From a plasmid, in sequence record AP025967.1: a DNA stretch of 64,000 bases; one strand, 5' to 3'. The notes beneath the pieces were generated by a model that saw nothing but the letters and a program-made list of their open reading frames with translations, was not told the DNA's origin and did no database searches. Numbering within the stretch: position 1 is the stretch's first letter; every line of letters begins with the position of its first letter. Below, one piece after another: positions 38,413 to 54,496 of this stretch. A program made the position numbers and the translations under genes.

Positions 38413-38676
38413 TTATGTAATGATATAGCCAGCAATTGCTGAAGCTGATCCAAAAATAACGCCACCGATAAAAACAGGTGCAACTTCTCTAAGAGTTTGC
38501 CCTTGATACATAATTCTGGAAGCACACCACATAAGTGCAATTGTGAGTAAAACTCCACCAAGTGCATACAAAGCAATGCTTAAGTTTTGCATAAAGGTAT
38601 TAACTTTATCAATACCACCAGCACCAAATGCAAAAATAGGACTGATTAAAATTAATGATAATAGCCTTTTTTTCAT
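38413..38676 (-). CDS. virB2: VirB2/TrbC-type pilin
   Basis: Start MKKRLLSLILISPIFAFGAG, a signal peptide, with RBS AAGGA; two hydrophobic helices. Confidence 0.65.
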   Translation of the reverse strand: MKKRLLSLILISPIFAFGAGGIDKVNTFMQNLSIALYALGGVLLTIALMWCASRIMYQGQTLREVAPVFIGGVIFGSASAIAGYIIT

Positions 38677-38695
38677 CCATATCCTTTCGTTAAAA

Positions 38696-38713
38696 AATTG
38701 CTCGTTTAATTTA
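38696..38713. repeat. Left inverted repeat (AAATTGCTCGTTTAATTT) of the vapXD-recombinase cassette
   Basis: Perfect 18-bp reverse complement of 40187-40204. Lies ~20 bp upstream of the virB2 start. Confidence 0.8.
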
Positions 38714-38846
38714 TGTCTTAAATTTGTGTTTAATAAATAAATTAAATTTAGTTTTATAATTAAATTAATATTATTCAAAAGCTTTTATTTAAGTATTAGC
38801 TATTTTTTACTAGAATTTGTTAGGTTTTTGATGAAAGGATAAAAAA

Positions 38847-39170
38847 ATGGCATACCCACTTTTAGGTACAAGAATAGTATTAGATGAAGAAAAGATTTTA
38901 AAAGAAGGCAAATATAATTTAGAAGATATGTATAAAATGATAGATGAATATGCTAAAGAATCAGGAATGATAAAAATTAATAAAGAAACTTATCATTGTA
39001 AAGGGGATAAGTATGATTTAGGTTGTATGACTTTATTTATATATAAATATTTGATTGATTCTGAATGGTTTACAAAAAATGCAAAAGAATGGATTTGGAT
39101 TAGTGAAAAAGAAGGAAATAGCGATTTAATTTCTGCAAGTAAAGCTGAAGGAGAAGGAATTTGGGAATAA
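38847..39170 (+). CDS. VapX-like putative antitoxin partner of VapD
   Basis: 107-aa ORF whose stop overlaps the vapD start, as in a toxin-antitoxin pair. Confidence 0.35.
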   Translation: MAYPLLGTRIVLDEEKILKEGKYNLEDMYKMIDEYAKESGMIKINKETYHCKGDKYDLGCMTLFIYKYLIDSEWFTKNAKEWIWISEKEGNSDLISASKAEGEGIWE

Positions 39171-39538
39171 ATCGCAAAGCAATTAATTTTGATTTATCTA
39201 CAAAAAGTCTTGAAAAATATTTCAAAGATACAAGAGAACCTTATTCTTTGATTAAAAAATTTATGCTTGAAAATGGTTTCGAGCATAGACAATATTCAGG
39301 TTATACTTCAAAAGAGCCAATAAATGAAAGACGAGTTATAAGAATAGTTAATAAGCTCACTAAAAAATTTACTTGGCTTGGCGAATGTGTTAAAGAGTTT
39401 GATATTACTGAAATAGGAGAGCAGTATAGCTTAAAAGAGACTATACAAGACTTATGTGCCAAAGATTTTCATCAAAAACTTAAAGAATTTACTGAAAAAA
39501 CACCAAAAAATCAAAAGCTAAAAGATTTAGAACGATGA
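39161..39538 (+). CDS. vapD: VapD (Cas2-like endoribonuclease)
   Basis: Alignable to Helicobacter VapD: KAINFDL...LEKYF...GFEHRQYSGY...VNKL...W. Confidence 0.7.
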   Translation: MGINRKAINFDLSTKSLEKYFKDTREPYSLIKKFMLENGFEHRQYSGYTSKEPINERRVIRIVNKLTKKFTWLGECVKEFDITEIGEQYSLKETIQDLCAKDFHQKLKEFTEKTPKNQKLKDLER

Positions 39539-40149
39539 ATATAGCATACATAAGAGTATCAACAAATAAACAAGAGTTAGACTCTCAAAAGTTAGAAATT
39601 ATGGAGTATTGTCATAAAAATAATATCATTTTAGATGAAATCTTAGAAGTAAAAATAAGTTCTACAAAATCTCAAGAGAAAAGAAAAATCAAGGATTTAA
39701 AACAAAAACTAAAAGCAGGTGATTTATTAATAGCAACAGAACTTTCAAGACTTGGTAGAAGTATGCTAGAAATAATTAATTTGGTGCTTGAGTTTAATTC
39801 TAATAATATCAAATTCCTATTTTTAAGACAAATGGAACTTAGTAATTTTAATAATCCTGCTTCTAAATTAATCTTATCAGTTTATGCTTATTTAGCAGAA
39901 AATGAAAGAGATTTGATAAGTCAAAGAACTAAAGCAGGACTAGAAAATGCTAGAGCTAGTGGGAAAAAACTAGGACGCCCTAAAGGCTCATTAAATAGTA
40001 TTTATGATAAGGATATAGATAAAATACAAACCTTGCTTGATAAAGATTTATCTATTAAAAGTATTTGGAAGTTATTATACAAAGATGATGGAAAAAGCTA
40101 TGATGGTTTATTGTGGTTTATCAAAAAACGAAAATTAAAAGGAAATTAA
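39535..40149 (+). CDS. Serine recombinase (resolvase/invertase family)
   Basis: N-terminal YIRVSTNKQ (catalytic Ser), SRLGRS motif, C-terminal HTH; 204 aa. Confidence 0.85.
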   Translation: MNIAYIRVSTNKQELDSQKLEIMEYCHKNNIILDEILEVKISSTKSQEKRKIKDLKQKLKAGDLLIATELSRLGRSMLEIINLVLEFNSNNIKFLFLRQMELSNFNNPASKLILSVYAYLAENERDLISQRTKAGLENARASGKKLGRPKGSLNSIYDKDIDKIQTLLDKDLSIKSIWKLLYKDDGKSYDGLLWFIKKRKLKGN

Positions 40150-40186
40150 ATTTTTATTTAAGAAAAATATAAAAAATTTTATAATA

Positions 40187-40204
40187 AAATTAAACGAGCA
40201 ATTT
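40187..40204. repeat. Right inverted repeat (AAATTAAACGAGCAATTT) of the vapXD-recombinase cassette
   Basis: Perfect reverse complement of 38696-38713. Confidence 0.8.
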
Positions 40205-40250
40205 ACTATGTTTGGATATATTTTTAATCTAAATATAAAGGAGAATAATT

Positions 40251-40442
40251 ATGAATAATAATAATATTGATAATTTAAAATTATACATTTGCAATGAAAG
40301 CTATGACTATGAGAGAGTAATGAAAGCTTTCAAAGGAGAACAAGATCTGATCAACAAAATCCAAATCAATCAACAAAATCCAAATCAATCAACAAAATCC
40401 AAGATCAATCAACAAAATCCAAATCATACAGAACAAAAATAA
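40251..40442 (+). CDS. Small protein containing a ~20-bp tandem DNA repeat
   Basis: 63 aa; 'INQQNPN' repeats reflect four tandem units 'ATCAATCAACAAAATCCAA(G)' at 40345-40428. Confidence 0.35.
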   Translation: MNNNNIDNLKLYICNESYDYERVMKAFKGEQDLINKIQINQQNPNQSTKSKINQQNPNHTEQK

Positions 40443-40445
40443 TTT

Positions 40446-40871
40446 ATGATATTAGATACAATTACTAAAATTATTACTATAGTTGGATTTTGTTTGGCAT
40501 TTTTTCAACTAAGAAATGTTATAAAAAATACCAAAGTTAATGTTTTAAAAACTGAATTTGATATTTTTGGTAAAATTTCAGAAAAAGAAAAAATATTTGT
40601 TGATTGTTATGAACAATCAATGTTATCAAGTGAAGAATCAAAAACTCAAGAATATTATAGTTTATATAAAAAAAGCAAAGAACAATATTTAAGTGAATTG
40701 AATTTAGTCTGTTTATATATATTAGAAGGATATTTTACTAGAAAACATTTTTTTCAAGAGTATGGATCAAAAATGTTTTCTATGTATGATGAAATAAAAG
40801 ATAAAGATTATACTAGCATTAATAAATTATGCAAAAAATATAGATGCGAATTATCTAAGTATAAAAAATAG
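40446..40871 (+). CDS. Hypothetical protein with N-terminal TM
   Basis: 141-aa ORF. Confidence 0.4.
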   Translation: MILDTITKIITIVGFCLAFFQLRNVIKNTKVNVLKTEFDIFGKISEKEKIFVDCYEQSMLSSEESKTQEYYSLYKKSKEQYLSELNLVCLYILEGYFTRKHFFQEYGSKMFSMYDEIKDKDYTSINKLCKKYRCELSKYKK

Positions 40872-40874
40872 ATT

Positions 40875-42668
40875 TTAATCAAATAAAGACTTTTGTAAAA
40901 GAAATTTATTGCTTTTGGTGTTTAATTGATTCATTGGATCACTACGCTTAATATACCTTTTTACCCTATTATTGCTTTGATAGATGAAAAACAAATCATT
41001 TTCATTTTTATATTGATTATAAAAAAACTCATCATCATAATTTGCAAATTCTACGCCTTTGCCATAAACATTAATTCCAAATTCTATAAGTTTATCTTTT
41101 AATTTAACAATCTCTTTCTTTTGTTTCGAAATAATAGAACTTTCTTTATAAAGTCTATAAGCTTTAATTTCACAAAACTCACTATAACTAAGAATTTTTT
41201 TATCAGGAAAACTTGTTAAAAATCTGATTAAATCCTGTGCGACTAAAGAATTTAAATCAATGAGTATTTTTGACAAGTCATCATCATAAGAAAGTGTAGA
41301 TTCTGTTTCAAGCCTTTTGATATATTCCCTACGAACTGTCAATACAAATACAGATACAATCACGCCATTTTCTTTTGTGATACGCTCTACAGAATCAAAC
41401 ATTAAAATCCCTTTATCTCTTTGTGTAATTGTTTTTTTATCTTTATCTTCTATATTTTGCGTAAAGGCTAAATCATATGCAAAACGAGAAATTTCTGTAA
41501 ATTTTTGTTTTAACCAAGAATAATTACTAGGAGCTTTATTAAGATATTGTTTTAAGAATTTATAAGGCTCTAATCTTACTTCCATATCCCAAAAATTTTC
41601 TTGATATTTTTTAATAACACTTGTATCTACATTTTTTTTGATATATAAAAATAGAGCATCTAAAATACTTCTATGTGTTTGCGTTAGCAAAGAATTTTTA
41701 AGAGTAATAGCATATGATGAACCATTTGCACCAAGCATTCCAAATTCTATTTTATTATCATTTTCTTTAAAGTACTTATAAAAATTAGAATCAGCAAGTT
41801 TTCGTGAGCTTAAATAAAAAACACCTCTATTTTCATTCATTGTTACATAACCTTCTGCTAAATCATTAACACTTACAGCAGAAATATCTTTTTTATTAAT
41901 AATTTCTAAAGTATGATTGTCAATATTTTCTACTTTTACATCTTTAATTAAAGGTTCATCAATACTAGAGTTCTGTAATACTTTAATTGTTTTTTGAAAC
42001 TCGCCAGCATTAATATTATTATTATCTTTTAACACTTCAAGTAAGCGATAAGTTGTAGAGCTTTTATCTTCTCCTTTTTGAAATGAGAGTTTATAAACAA
42101 GTCTAGGGGCATTTATAATTACAGAGCTACCCATAAGACTTTCGCCTTTTTTATCTAAGTGATGAAGTAATAAAATAGCTTGATTGTTTGATTTTGCTAC
42201 ATCTGTTAAAATATTAAAGAAATTTTGCACATCATTTTGATTATTTTGATCTTTAAAGCCCAAGATTGAGAAGAATGCACTAAAAGTATCAAGAACGATT
42301 AAATCACAATCTGCTAACTCATTAAGTTCTTCTTTTAAGCTATCCATAGGTTCTTTATCAATTTTTGGAAGTTCATTTGAAAACTCAAATTCTAAACTAT
42401 TAAAAGGATAAAAATTTTCTATATTTTTAATGCGTTCTAAAATTGCTTTGTTCTTATCTTCTATACTCCAAAAAAAAGGTTTTAAACCATCATTAATAGC
42501 ATTAGCACATACTTTTAAAGCTAAAAAAGATTTTCCTACTTCACTATTGCCACTTAATACAGCTACAGAACCTCTTTCTAGCTTAATAGTGTCTTCACAA
42601 ATTACAGAAACATTCTCATCGCTAAAAATTCCAAGTGTAATTGTATTAATAGTATTGCGTTTAGGCAT
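40875..42668 (-). CDS. repA: Plasmid replication protein with RecA-fold/AAA_25-type ATPase domain
   Basis: Walker A 'GNSEVGKS', Walker B-like 'ILLLHHLDKKG'; 597 aa; adjacent to the iteron array. Confidence 0.5.
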   Translation of the reverse strand: MPKRNTINTITLGIFSDENVSVICEDTIKLERGSVAVLSGNSEVGKSFLALKVCANAINDGLKPFFWSIEDKNKAILERIKNIENFYPFNSLEFEFSNELPKIDKEPMDSLKEELNELADCDLIVLDTFSAFFSILGFKDQNNQNDVQNFFNILTDVAKSNNQAILLLHHLDKKGESLMGSSVIINAPRLVYKLSFQKGEDKSSTTYRLLEVLKDNNNINAGEFQKTIKVLQNSSIDEPLIKDVKVENIDNHTLEIINKKDISAVSVNDLAEGYVTMNENRGVFYLSSRKLADSNFYKYFKENDNKIEFGMLGANGSSYAITLKNSLLTQTHRSILDALFLYIKKNVDTSVIKKYQENFWDMEVRLEPYKFLKQYLNKAPSNYSWLKQKFTEISRFAYDLAFTQNIEDKDKKTITQRDKGILMFDSVERITKENGVIVSVFVLTVRREYIKRLETESTLSYDDDLSKILIDLNSLVAQDLIRFLTSFPDKKILSYSEFCEIKAYRLYKESSIISKQKKEIVKLKDKLIEFGINVYGKGVEFANYDDEFFYNQYKNENDLFFIYQSNNRVKRYIKRSDPMNQLNTKSNKFLLQKSLFD

Positions 42669-52470: not shown

Positions 52471-53718
52471 CTAAACCCTAGTTTGTCCTATAAGATTATT
52501 AAGTCTATCCATTATAGATCCAACATAAGAATTTATACTTTCACTGCTTGCTTTCCAGCCATTAGCCTTTGCTTGATTAAACTGATTATCAAACCAAGCT
52601 CCACCATAGCCTATGCTTGTATTTTGCCAAGCAACTCCTTTTTCCATTGCATATATATCTGCATCAAGCCAGCCATCTTGTGCATAACCTTTTAATAAAC
52701 TTGCAAAATCAACTTTTCCTGTCATAATGTCATCTAAGGAAACGCTAAAAGAAGGATTTGCTTTCATTTCTAGCTCAAATTTTGCTTCTAAAACTTTTGC
52801 TTCAGGACTAAAAACAACTTGATTTGGAGATGGAAAAGGCGGATAGGATTTTAAAAAACTCATAAATAAAGCTTCTTTAGAATAATTCCCATCTTCATTT
52901 TGTGGATAAACTGACATATCAGGATTAAATTCACCTTCATTTGAAGGTCCTTGCTCCATGCTTTGCGGAGAAAAGTCAAGTTTCATAAGGTTCATACCCA
53001 AATTCATAGTAGAATACTTAATCGCTTGTGCTTCGTGAAATTGTTCCGCATTAAATATATTTTTTACAATTTTTTCTTTGTTTTCATTACGACCATAATT
53101 TAGTCCTTTTGGTAATTGCTCTAAATCAGCTTCGCTAAAACTTGTTTTATCATTTGGAAATGCACTTATTACTTGATTAAAACTATTATAATAGGATTTA
53201 ACAATAGAAACCATATCAAAACTATCATAATAATTACCACTAGTTTCATCAGCCATACCATGTTGATTAAATCTCTCTATCTCATCCAAAGTAGATTTAT
53301 GTATCTTAAAATCATTTGGCAATCCTGCGGCTTTGTTAAAATCACTTCCCATATAACCATCTTTATCTACACTATAACCATAGGCTGTATCAGTGCTTAA
53401 ATCTACTTGTTTATATTTTAGAGTATAAATAGAGTTTTTAAATTCACTTGATATATCATAATTAGGAGAATTTGTTTTACTACTTATACTAAAATTAGTA
53501 TTATTGCTAGTATTTGTTGTATTAGTAGAATTTAATACTTCACTTCTTGCTAGAGTTTGTGAATTTGCATTTTGAATTTCATTTAATTTACTAGCATTTT
53601 GTTTTAAAAAAGCATTAGCAAAACTTATTTTAGAATTTTCTTTACTTTCTTTATTAGCTTTTGCTTGTGAAAGTATAGAAGTATAGTTTGAGTTATCATT
53701 GATGCTAAAGATACTCAT
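52471..53718 (-). CDS. Hypothetical N/S/T-rich protein (415 aa)
   Basis: ORF. No motif recognised. Confidence 0.5.
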   Translation of the reverse strand: MSIFSINDNSNYTSILSQAKANKESKENSKISFANAFLKQNASKLNEIQNANSQTLARSEVLNSTNTTNTSNNTNFSISSKTNSPNYDISSEFKNSIYTLKYKQVDLSTDTAYGYSVDKDGYMGSDFNKAAGLPNDFKIHKSTLDEIERFNQHGMADETSGNYYDSFDMVSIVKSYYNSFNQVISAFPNDKTSFSEADLEQLPKGLNYGRNENKEKIVKNIFNAEQFHEAQAIKYSTMNLGMNLMKLDFSPQSMEQGPSNEGEFNPDMSVYPQNEDGNYSKEALFMSFLKSYPPFPSPNQVVFSPEAKVLEAKFELEMKANPSFSVSLDDIMTGKVDFASLLKGYAQDGWLDADIYAMEKGVAWQNTSIGYGGAWFDNQFNQAKANGWKASSESINSYVGSIMDRLNNLIGQTRV

Positions 53719-54268: not shown

Positions 54269-54496
54269 TTTAGCTCCTTGTTTTAAAATGTAATATAATT
54301 CATTTTATCATAATAAATGCTCTAAATCAAATTTAATCAAAGTATTATGTTATAGATATTTAAAAAATATATATAATGATTTTATGGTATTTGTGAAAGT
54401 TTTTTATTTTTTAAAAAAATGTATAAAATTGTAATAAAGCTAATCTAAAATATAAACAAATAATTTTTTATATTGTATTACAATTTAACTCAATTA

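Follow-up and report, generated by a model that had tools for sequence, protein, structure and literature searches.

Layout of the recombinase module and its arms

The DNA analyzed here is a 64-kb stretch of plasmid sequence AP025967.1 (28% GC), the window in what follows, in which a gene for a small serine recombinase is bracketed by two exact inverted repeats, or arms, beside the first gene of a type IV secretion system (T4SS) operon. The region belongs to a Campylobacter pTet-type conjugative plasmid, as seen from its matches to 205 PLSDB records, 204 of them from Campylobacter and pTet of C. jejuni 81-176 among them. In C. jejuni and C. coli, tet(O) and further resistance genes are carried mainly by plasmids of this type. 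On the left lies the VirB2/TrbC pilin gene virB2 (cmgB2; 38413-38676, minus strand; PF04956, E = 1.6e-14), with which the T4SS operon begins and whose start codon, at 38676, is 18 nt beyond the left arm, AAATTGCTCGTTTAATTT (38695-38712). The right arm, AAATTAAACGAGCAATTT (40187-40204), is its exact reverse complement, and the 1474 nt between them (38713-40186) hold ORF107, a VapD gene and the serine recombinase. The first-pass annotation had described a perfect 18-bp inverted repeat close upstream of virB2 with the ribosome-binding site outside it; this holds, except that the left arm begins one base to the left of the position then given (38696-38713).

By composition alone, such a repeat is only mildly unusual, since Markov-1 random sequence gives 0.20 exact 18-nt inverted repeats within 3 kb per window and one was observed. 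The functional argument therefore rests on comparative evidence: the arms are set apart from chance because their position is conserved and because both co-vary in every relative examined. The same annotation had allowed that the 18-mer might be frequent by chance, or that relatives might carry the genes without the repeats. No copies besides the two arms occur in the window even when 3 mismatches are allowed, and arms bracket the recombinase in every relative examined, which also upholds its description of a Hin-type architecture with the recombinase inside a segment bounded by inverted sites.

The recombinase gene (39535-40149, plus strand) encodes 204 residues, with a catalytic domain (PF00239, E = 6.4e-34, residues 3-145), a long E-helix and a C-terminal three-helix DNA-binding domain, and its sequence identifies the product as a complete small serine recombinase. 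The catalytic serine is Ser9, where YIRVSTNKQ lines up with YVRVSTNDQ of Gin, and R7, R72 and R75 are invariant across 36 relatives. An AlphaFold2 (AF2) model with a predicted local distance difference test score (pLDDT) of 86.5 has a helix at residues 110-141 followed by helices at 156-169, 174-181 and 189-198, and aligns over its full length (197-203 columns), E-helix and C-terminal domain included, with DNA-bound gamma-delta/Tn3 resolvase and also with Sin; a Pfam search found no match to a helix-turn-helix domain. The closest solved structure in a PDB sequence search was Gin invertase (E = 1e-17), slightly better than the resolvases. The best NCBIfam model was that of the Mpi invertases (NF009949, E = 4e-39), and membership in that master DNA invertase family was rejected at 134.4 bits, far under the cutoff of 272. 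As modelled, the fold alone cannot distinguish a resolvase from an invertase. On the C. helveticus plasmid (L004), a second related serine recombinase lies on the opposite strand about 2.2 kb from the first (6603-7123), with 57% identity over residues 77-201.

Upstream of the recombinase are ORF107 (cpp29; 38847-39170, plus strand) and a gene for a Cas2-like protein of the VapD family (39161-39538, plus strand; NF041506, 150 bits against a cutoff of 100, E = 1.7e-44, with weak Cas2 matches). ORF107 has no family match in Pfam, NCBIfam or PADLOC, and its standing as a putative antitoxin partner of VapD is given by position and by the 10-nt overlap with vapD. The content named in the first-pass annotation was thus borne out for VapD and the 204-residue recombinase, and the name vapX was attached to an ORF that belongs to no recognized family. 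The idea that the unit is a vapX-vapD-recombinase cassette did not survive comparison, because the same arms surround the recombinase alone in L003, L004, L006, L105 and L013. In a Helicobacter apodemus plasmid (L003), the C. helveticus plasmid, C. estrildidarum (L006) and H. typhlonius-type elements (L105-L115), vapX and vapD are absent and the recombinase is directly divergent from virB2, with the inverted repeat kept. Our alignment A4 shows the left arm, the spacer and a promoter with the -10 box TAGAAT to be homologous in the window, pTet, L006 and L003, with homology lost just past the transcription start site (TSS) of that promoter, where vapX-vapD is present or absent; vapX-vapD is therefore optional cargo that separates the recombinase from its promoter, a putative toxin-antitoxin passenger sharing the recombinase transcript. 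Judged by these sequence comparisons, the conserved unit across Campylobacter and Helicobacter T4SS plasmids and integrative and conjugative elements is arm, promoter, serine recombinase and arm. Among more distant members of about 58% identity, an AbiEii pair occupies the vapX-vapD slot upstream of the recombinase in L136 (75-1742), and a YafQ-like toxin gene lies downstream of the recombinase in L135 (1162-1724), which suggests that the module is recurrently associated with addiction genes.

The module also occurs on the chromosome. In a Campylobacter metagenome-assembled genome (L013, 1509-4701) and four further assemblies (L116-L119), arm, recombinase and arm lie in a capsule/heptose locus between divergent operons, one with ManC and GDP-mannose dehydratase (GMD) and the other with GHMP kinase, GmhA and a nucleotidyltransferase. 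A start codon follows each arm at a distance of 22-24 nt, and the promoter is a consensus TATAAT on the right and a weaker hexamer on the left. Because surface-polysaccharide loci are classic targets of invertible promoters, this context keeps alive the reading of the module as an invertible element, or inverton.

Co-variation, breakpoints and transcription starts at the arm centre

Arm pairs were compared across 15 elements. Within an element, left and right are far more alike (93% identity) than arms of different elements (74%), and the observed value was never attained in 20000 permutations. Variability is greatest in two columns, the central dinucleotide, which takes seven states (read from outer to inner: CT, AG, TT, GT, AT, AA and GA) and is nevertheless discordant between left and right arm in 0 of 15 elements, whereas the CG beside it, itself almost invariant, differs between the arms in 4 of 15. 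In the window the dinucleotide is CT in the left arm (38701-38702, neither strand assigned; AG on the outward strand) and AG in the right arm (40197-40198). Co-evolution with the protein fails to explain the concordance, because arms change while the recombinase hardly does: the enzymes of the window and of pTet differ at 3 of 204 residues and both arms differ at the same three bases, and L098 has an identical recombinase yet CA for CG in both arms. In serine recombinases such as Hin, Gin and the large serine integrases, the crossover dinucleotide varies between systems and must match between partner sites. The arms very probably carry the signature of such a dinucleotide within a G-NN-C core, as far as sequence comparison can speak, and the CT of the left arm is the candidate crossover dinucleotide of the window.

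Natural variants have breakpoints at the same place. One contig (L114/L123) has a recombinase identical to that of normal L120-type elements and is rearranged relative to them (L123 9956-14382 against L120): the module (100% identity), the virB5-to-virB2 segment (99.9%) and the virB6-to-virB11 segment (99.4%) follow one another in a different order, the virB6-virB11 block being inverted and moved and virD4 and a virB5-like gene truncated. Each of the three junctions that can be seen coincides with the 4-5-nt core in the middle of an arm (TGAAC, GTTCA and GGAAC), the fourth being just outside the sequence examined, and the secondary site P2, inside the virB5-like gene, has only this core in common with the arms. 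The adjacency graph of L123 and L120 is a single 8-cycle and so requires at least three reciprocal exchanges, all of which obey the AA/TT polarity. On one consistent path, the left arm and P2 would first recombine to give an inversion, P1 and the hybrid site would then bring about an excision, and integration would follow at the right arm. Since the junctions share just 5 nt, a k-mer assembly artefact is unlikely. In the pTet family itself, pGB19 and pAR-0416 (the hybrid-arm loci are also listed as pGB19 and L133) have a hybrid right arm, ATATCT-AG-CGTTTTATTT, followed by RepL/TIR cargo, in which the inner half and the dinucleotide equal the left arm and the outer half has been replaced exactly at the dinucleotide. 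A search for the displaced outer half where the pGB19 cargo ends was negative, leaving a one-sided breakpoint. Both cases support, at the level of sequence, strand exchange at the arm centre.

The arm centre is also where transcription begins. Differential RNA sequencing (dRNA-seq) mapped TSSs on pTet of strain 81-176 (Dugar et al. 2013; PMC3656092, Table S5), among them a primary TSS of cmgB2 with a 27-nt 5′ untranslated region and a TSS antisense to cpp26, and the upstream sequences reported for both end in AAATAAAACG (PMC3656092). Both map, at 3191(-) and 4684(+) of the pTet locus L001, to the G of the central CG in the left and right arm, respectively, and by homology they predict a virB2 TSS at 38703 on the minus strand and a right-arm TSS at G 40196 on the plus strand of the window. 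Each arm thus reaches from about -9 to +9 of a promoter that fires outward, and in both transcripts the co-varying dinucleotide occupies +2/+3 (38701-38702 being +3/+2 of virB2). The -10 hexamers lie across the inner arm edges (ATAAAT left, TAAAAT right). The right-arm promoter (40158-40190, plus strand) consists of TTAAGA-16-TATAAT at 40158-40185, just inside the arm and the best sigma-70-like match in the region, and TAAAAT at 40185-40190, which is -11 to -6 of the predicted TSS. A third promoter, with the TAGAAT box and a TSS at 38822 (38812-38822, plus strand; placed by the primary TSS of cpp29 in PMC3656092 and by alignment A4), serves the ORF107-vapD-recombinase operon and drives the recombinase directly in relatives that have no vapX-vapD. 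The left arm of L105 includes TTGAAC, which stands 17 nt upstream of TATAAT in the promoter that serves the recombinase, so that a protein bound to that arm would occlude the virB2 start and the recombinase -35 together.

These positions change what an inversion would do. The first-pass annotation had placed the only space for a virB promoter inside the cassette and had expected inversion to uncouple the virB2-virD4 operon from it. The virB2 TSS sits instead at the centre of the left arm, an equivalent TSS lies in the right arm, and a crossover at +2/+3 would hand virB2 the right-arm promoter together with read-through from the recombinase operon, downstream of which we found no terminator-like site. 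The dRNA-seq step heights of the right-arm and left-arm promoters are nearly equal (85.5 versus 84, with 27.7 for the recombinase operon; PMC3656092), and flipping, which would pass the left-arm promoter to the unit on the right, would therefore swap promoters rather than silence virB2. In pTet 81-176, the transcript from the right-arm promoter (L001 4684(+)) runs antisense to the 3′ end of cpp26 with high dRNA-seq enrichment (PMC3656092).

Orientation of the module and competing explanations

On balance, we consider it probable, although by a modest measure, that the locus is a self-contained Hin-like module with inverted crossover sites inside two outward promoters, in which occupancy of the sites probably regulates transcription, strand exchange can take place at the central dinucleotide and inversion is at most rare. 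The arms are very probably the crossover and operator sites of such a module, and we infer recombinase binding, repression, inversion and resolution as its possible activities. The enzyme would use both arms as crossover sites of its own and exchange strands in the middle of the G-NN-C core (CT/AG in the window), the left arm lying over the start of the virB2/T4SS operon and the right arm over the start of variable cargo or of the transcript antisense to cpp26. Recombinase dimers seated on the arms over -9 to +9 would probably repress both outward promoters, and in compact relatives the -35 of the promoter that serves the recombinase itself would lie under them as well. Exchange in cis between the two arms would invert the module and swap the promoter, and the read-through, that feed the T4SS operon, whereas recombination of like arms from two plasmid copies would lead to dimer resolution or to cointegrates. 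Rare exchange with secondary sites could account for rearrangements and for cargo turnover beside the right arm.

A number of observations weigh against this reading, above all the uniform orientation of the module. We built the flipped configuration in silico, with the junctions TCCTTTCGTTAAAAAATTGCTCGTTTAATTTTATTATAAAATTTTTTATA on the left and ACACAAATTTAAGACATAAATTAAACGAGCAATTTACTATGTTTGGATAT on the right for this plasmid. Of 206 plasmid records, 199 have the native left junction and none has the flipped one, and the full flipped construct was found at 80% coverage or more in 0 of 205 records. No flipped module turned up at other virB2 loci either, including those in other genera and chromosomally integrated copies, where orientation is uniform. 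If inversion were frequent and neutral, both states would appear among independent isolates, and only the native one is seen. The other adverse points concern the sites, the enzyme and the extent of the material. The exact arm identity of 18-23 bp is below the 26-28 bp of hix, gix and res site I, and dyad symmetry is weak, with 4-6 of 8-12 positions matching about either candidate centre, no more than AT-rich DNA gives. The residue equivalent to gamma-delta Asp67 is Ser71 (ELSRLGR instead of KLDRLGR), and Ser71 and Glu69 are invariant throughout the recombinase family, the motif ELSRLGR being found in distant Bacteroidota relatives as well. The TSS evidence comes from pTet 81-176 and was carried to the window by homology, and the rearrangements amount to one metagenomic contig and one hybrid-arm lineage, each with one or two records.

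The absence of flipped modules among about 200 independent isolates means that a flipped majority state is rare (roughly <2%), and any inversion would have to be rare, transient or counter-selected; consensus assemblies hide a minority orientation. The five capsule-locus copies (L013 and L116-L119) all have the same orientation. A metagenome scan gave no match to the flipped junction, a result that is uninformative in a collection nearly devoid of relatives (best 57-80% protein identity), and the contig look-up, which merges places with the same neighbours and is blind to flipped modules, served for context. The short contigs L135 and L136 lack the arm-bounded bubble that mixed orientation would leave and are ordinary fragments. 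ON/OFF switching by the module is thus unsupported, physiological inversion is unproven, and the invertible switch for the T4SS operon that the first-pass annotation proposed finds no counterpart in the 206 plasmid records or at any other locus. A bolder form of the Hin-like reading, which we entertain tentatively and regard as doubtful, is that these modules make up a family of "promoter-swap" invertons in Campylobacterota, in which rare recombinase-driven flips would make the T4SS pilin operon and the neighbouring cargo, or at the chromosomal locus a pair of capsule-sugar operons, trade their outward promoters along with the operon read-through.

The fixed orientation in 199 plasmids and across genera is just what a plasmid stability module would show, that is, a multimer-resolution resolvase with a toxin-antitoxin pair, whose arms would serve as direct repeats for resolution between plasmid copies only, and as operators for autoregulation, and which would never invert. 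This explanation, the main rival, which we hold unlikely, draws further strength from a fold that fits resolvases as well as invertases, from toxin-antitoxin genes that repeatedly lie beside the recombinase (vapX-vapD; AbiEii in L136), from the status of the recombinase as a conserved backbone gene of conjugative plasmids, and from sites over divergent promoters that recall Tn3/gamma-delta res and parCBA-parDE of RP4. A single site in each plasmid is enough for resolution, however, which leaves unexplained a dinucleotide that is discordant in 0 of 15 elements over seven states. A canonical three-subsite res of about 114-120 bp would not fit the gap between virB2 and the recombinase, 81 nt in L105 (2419-2501), nor the 68 nt from the left arm to the start codon in L013, and no further arm-like copies occur within 3 mismatches. 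Dimer resolution also has no role at the chromosomal capsule locus, and the L123 events include an inversion, which speaks against a strict topological filter. The mapped TSSs at the same base of both arms could instead mean that the arms are two copies of a promoter, operator or leader element that co-regulates two outward transcripts under some regulator and plays no part in recombination, the recombinase being incidental. Both arms do read the same way toward the downstream gene, and in several lineages (L105, L004) the identity runs through the 5′ leader up to the Shine-Dalgarno sequence. We nevertheless regard such co-regulation as improbable: it leaves unexplained both the concordance of left and right arms at their least conserved positions and the breakpoints at the core, the right arm is perfect in pTet 81-176 though no gene lies downstream of it, and the arms always accompany the recombinase, even outside the T4SS context.

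Mobility in one form or another has some footing in the module's presence at the unrelated capsule locus (L013), in its core-to-core relocation in L123 and in the variable cargo beside the arms, and the first-pass annotation had offered a recombinase-mobilised addiction cassette as its alternative. As stated, with the arms terminating a small element that would be moved by the recombinase along with vapX-vapD, this is very improbable. The module keeps its place between virB2 and cpp26 from one genus to another, vapX-vapD is optional and internal and forms no unit with the arms, and neither an empty site nor multiple copies were found, the arms being unique in the window; moreover, by serine-recombinase chemistry, a non-palindromic central dinucleotide in inverted sites should forbid simple excision. 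What persists of the proposal is that the module does recur in the capsule locus and has been relocated in one relative. Least credible of all is that the arms pair as RNA, in a long-range stem of one transcript, or match by chance in AT-rich DNA. The arm mismatches in L003 are transitions compatible with G-U pairs on one strand, and an exact 18-mer inverted repeat is, after all, expected 0.2 times per window, but conservation and co-variation exclude a chance match. The RNA stem was rejected on the ground that no mapped transcript holds the two arms in full: the RNA of virB2 and that of the right arm each begin at an arm centre, and transcription of the recombinase operon sets in downstream of the left arm.

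Among described systems, Hin-hix of Salmonella, and likewise Gin, Cin, Pin and Min, resemble the Hin-like module proposed here in having a serine recombinase of about 200 residues inside a segment of about 1 kb, inverted sites with a common central dinucleotide and outward promoter activity. They differ in that the sites here coincide with TSSs and that there are two outward promoters, so that inversion would swap rather than switch off; both orientations are common for Hin and never seen here, identity reaches 32-34% at most, and the motif is ELSRLGR rather than KLDRLGR. Mpi of Bacteroides fragilis, which inverts polysaccharide promoters, is close in providing the best NCBIfam match, in the ELSRLGR of distant Bacteroidota relatives and in the one module that lies between capsule-sugar operons. 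It acts in trans on many short promoter segments, however, whereas the sites here are one local pair around the gene. The core of the Mpi inverted repeat, which we take to be ARACGTWCGT, presumably resembles the CG-NN-CR core of the arms; the consensus could not be confirmed in the literature searched. Tn3/gamma-delta resolvase-res and RP4 ParA (parCBA-parDE) share with the module the sites over divergent promoters, which are autoregulatory there, as well as a toxin-antitoxin neighbour on a conjugative plasmid and the full-length fold, and they depart from it in that there is no room here for a three-subsite res and that two inverted sites with a concordant dinucleotide bracket the gene. The beta recombinase of pSM19035 and Sin are small, plasmid-borne serine recombinases that act on direct as well as inverted sites. 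By analogy, they make it plausible that one enzyme could resolve dimers and, now and then, invert; their sites have an adjacent accessory subsite and require a host DNA-bending protein, features that were neither identified nor tested for here.

The searchable literature yielded no account of the arms or of an inversion in pTet, and within the literature searched phase variation in Campylobacter is attributed to simple-sequence repeats only (PMC11868660). If the module is a working inverton, it would be the first case of phase variation by site-specific inversion in Campylobacter, on the main family of tetracycline-resistance plasmids and with its crossover at +2/+3, and in a minority of the cells conjugation or the surface phenotype would be altered. 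Crossover sites placed at transcription start points would be an unusual coupling of recombination to promoters even if the module never inverts. Little is known of how the T4SS operon of pTet-type plasmids is controlled, and the mapped virB2 TSS now falls inside a conserved putative recombinase site, which makes it possible to test whether the recombinase represses the transfer operon, whether it inverts the module in a subpopulation and whether it is behind the cargo turnover beside the right arm.

The cargo slot and neighbouring sequences

To the right of the module, the conserved backbone resumes with cpp26 (40875-42668, minus strand), which encodes an AAA_25/DnaB-like ATPase as judged by sequence comparison and is the gene to which the right-arm transcript is antisense in pTet 81-176. 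The slot between the right arm and the stop codon of the ATPase gene (40205-40874, plus strand) is variable: homology to all other lineages ends at 40203-40205 and returns at 40869-40877. It holds ORF63 (40251-40442) and ORF141 (40446-40871; weak DUF4760) in the window, a 732-residue HATPase_c protein elsewhere, RepL and a TIR-domain protein in pGB19 and RepL in C. helveticus, and it is empty in pTet 81-176; loci with cargo unlike that of the window are L098 (3868-6066), L131 (4407-5589), L004 (4518-5006) and L105. This hypervariable slot may be a hotspot for defence genes or other cargo. We tested whether the cargo boundaries fall at the arm core and rejected this, as they generally lie at the outer arm end (40203-40205); boundaries there are compatible with exchange anywhere within identical arms together with homologous recombination in cpp26.

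Three megabase-sized C. jejuni records (L095, CP059971.1; L102; L103) carry an identical recombinase and module, in pTet-like elements integrated in, or assembled with, the chromosome. Elsewhere in the window, a second exact inverted repeat, of 16 nt (53407-53422 and 54444-54459), has its arms about 1 kb apart. It was set aside as a similar module, there being no recombinase nearby and one arm lying within a gene, a 415-residue ORF, and it is probably due to chance. Within ORF63 of the cargo slot, positions 40337-40426 comprise four tandem copies of a 19-20-nt unit (AAAATCCAAATCAATCAAC...), and the length of ORF63 in otherwise near-identical plasmids is 50, 63, 64 or 78 residues, which suggests variation in repeat number.

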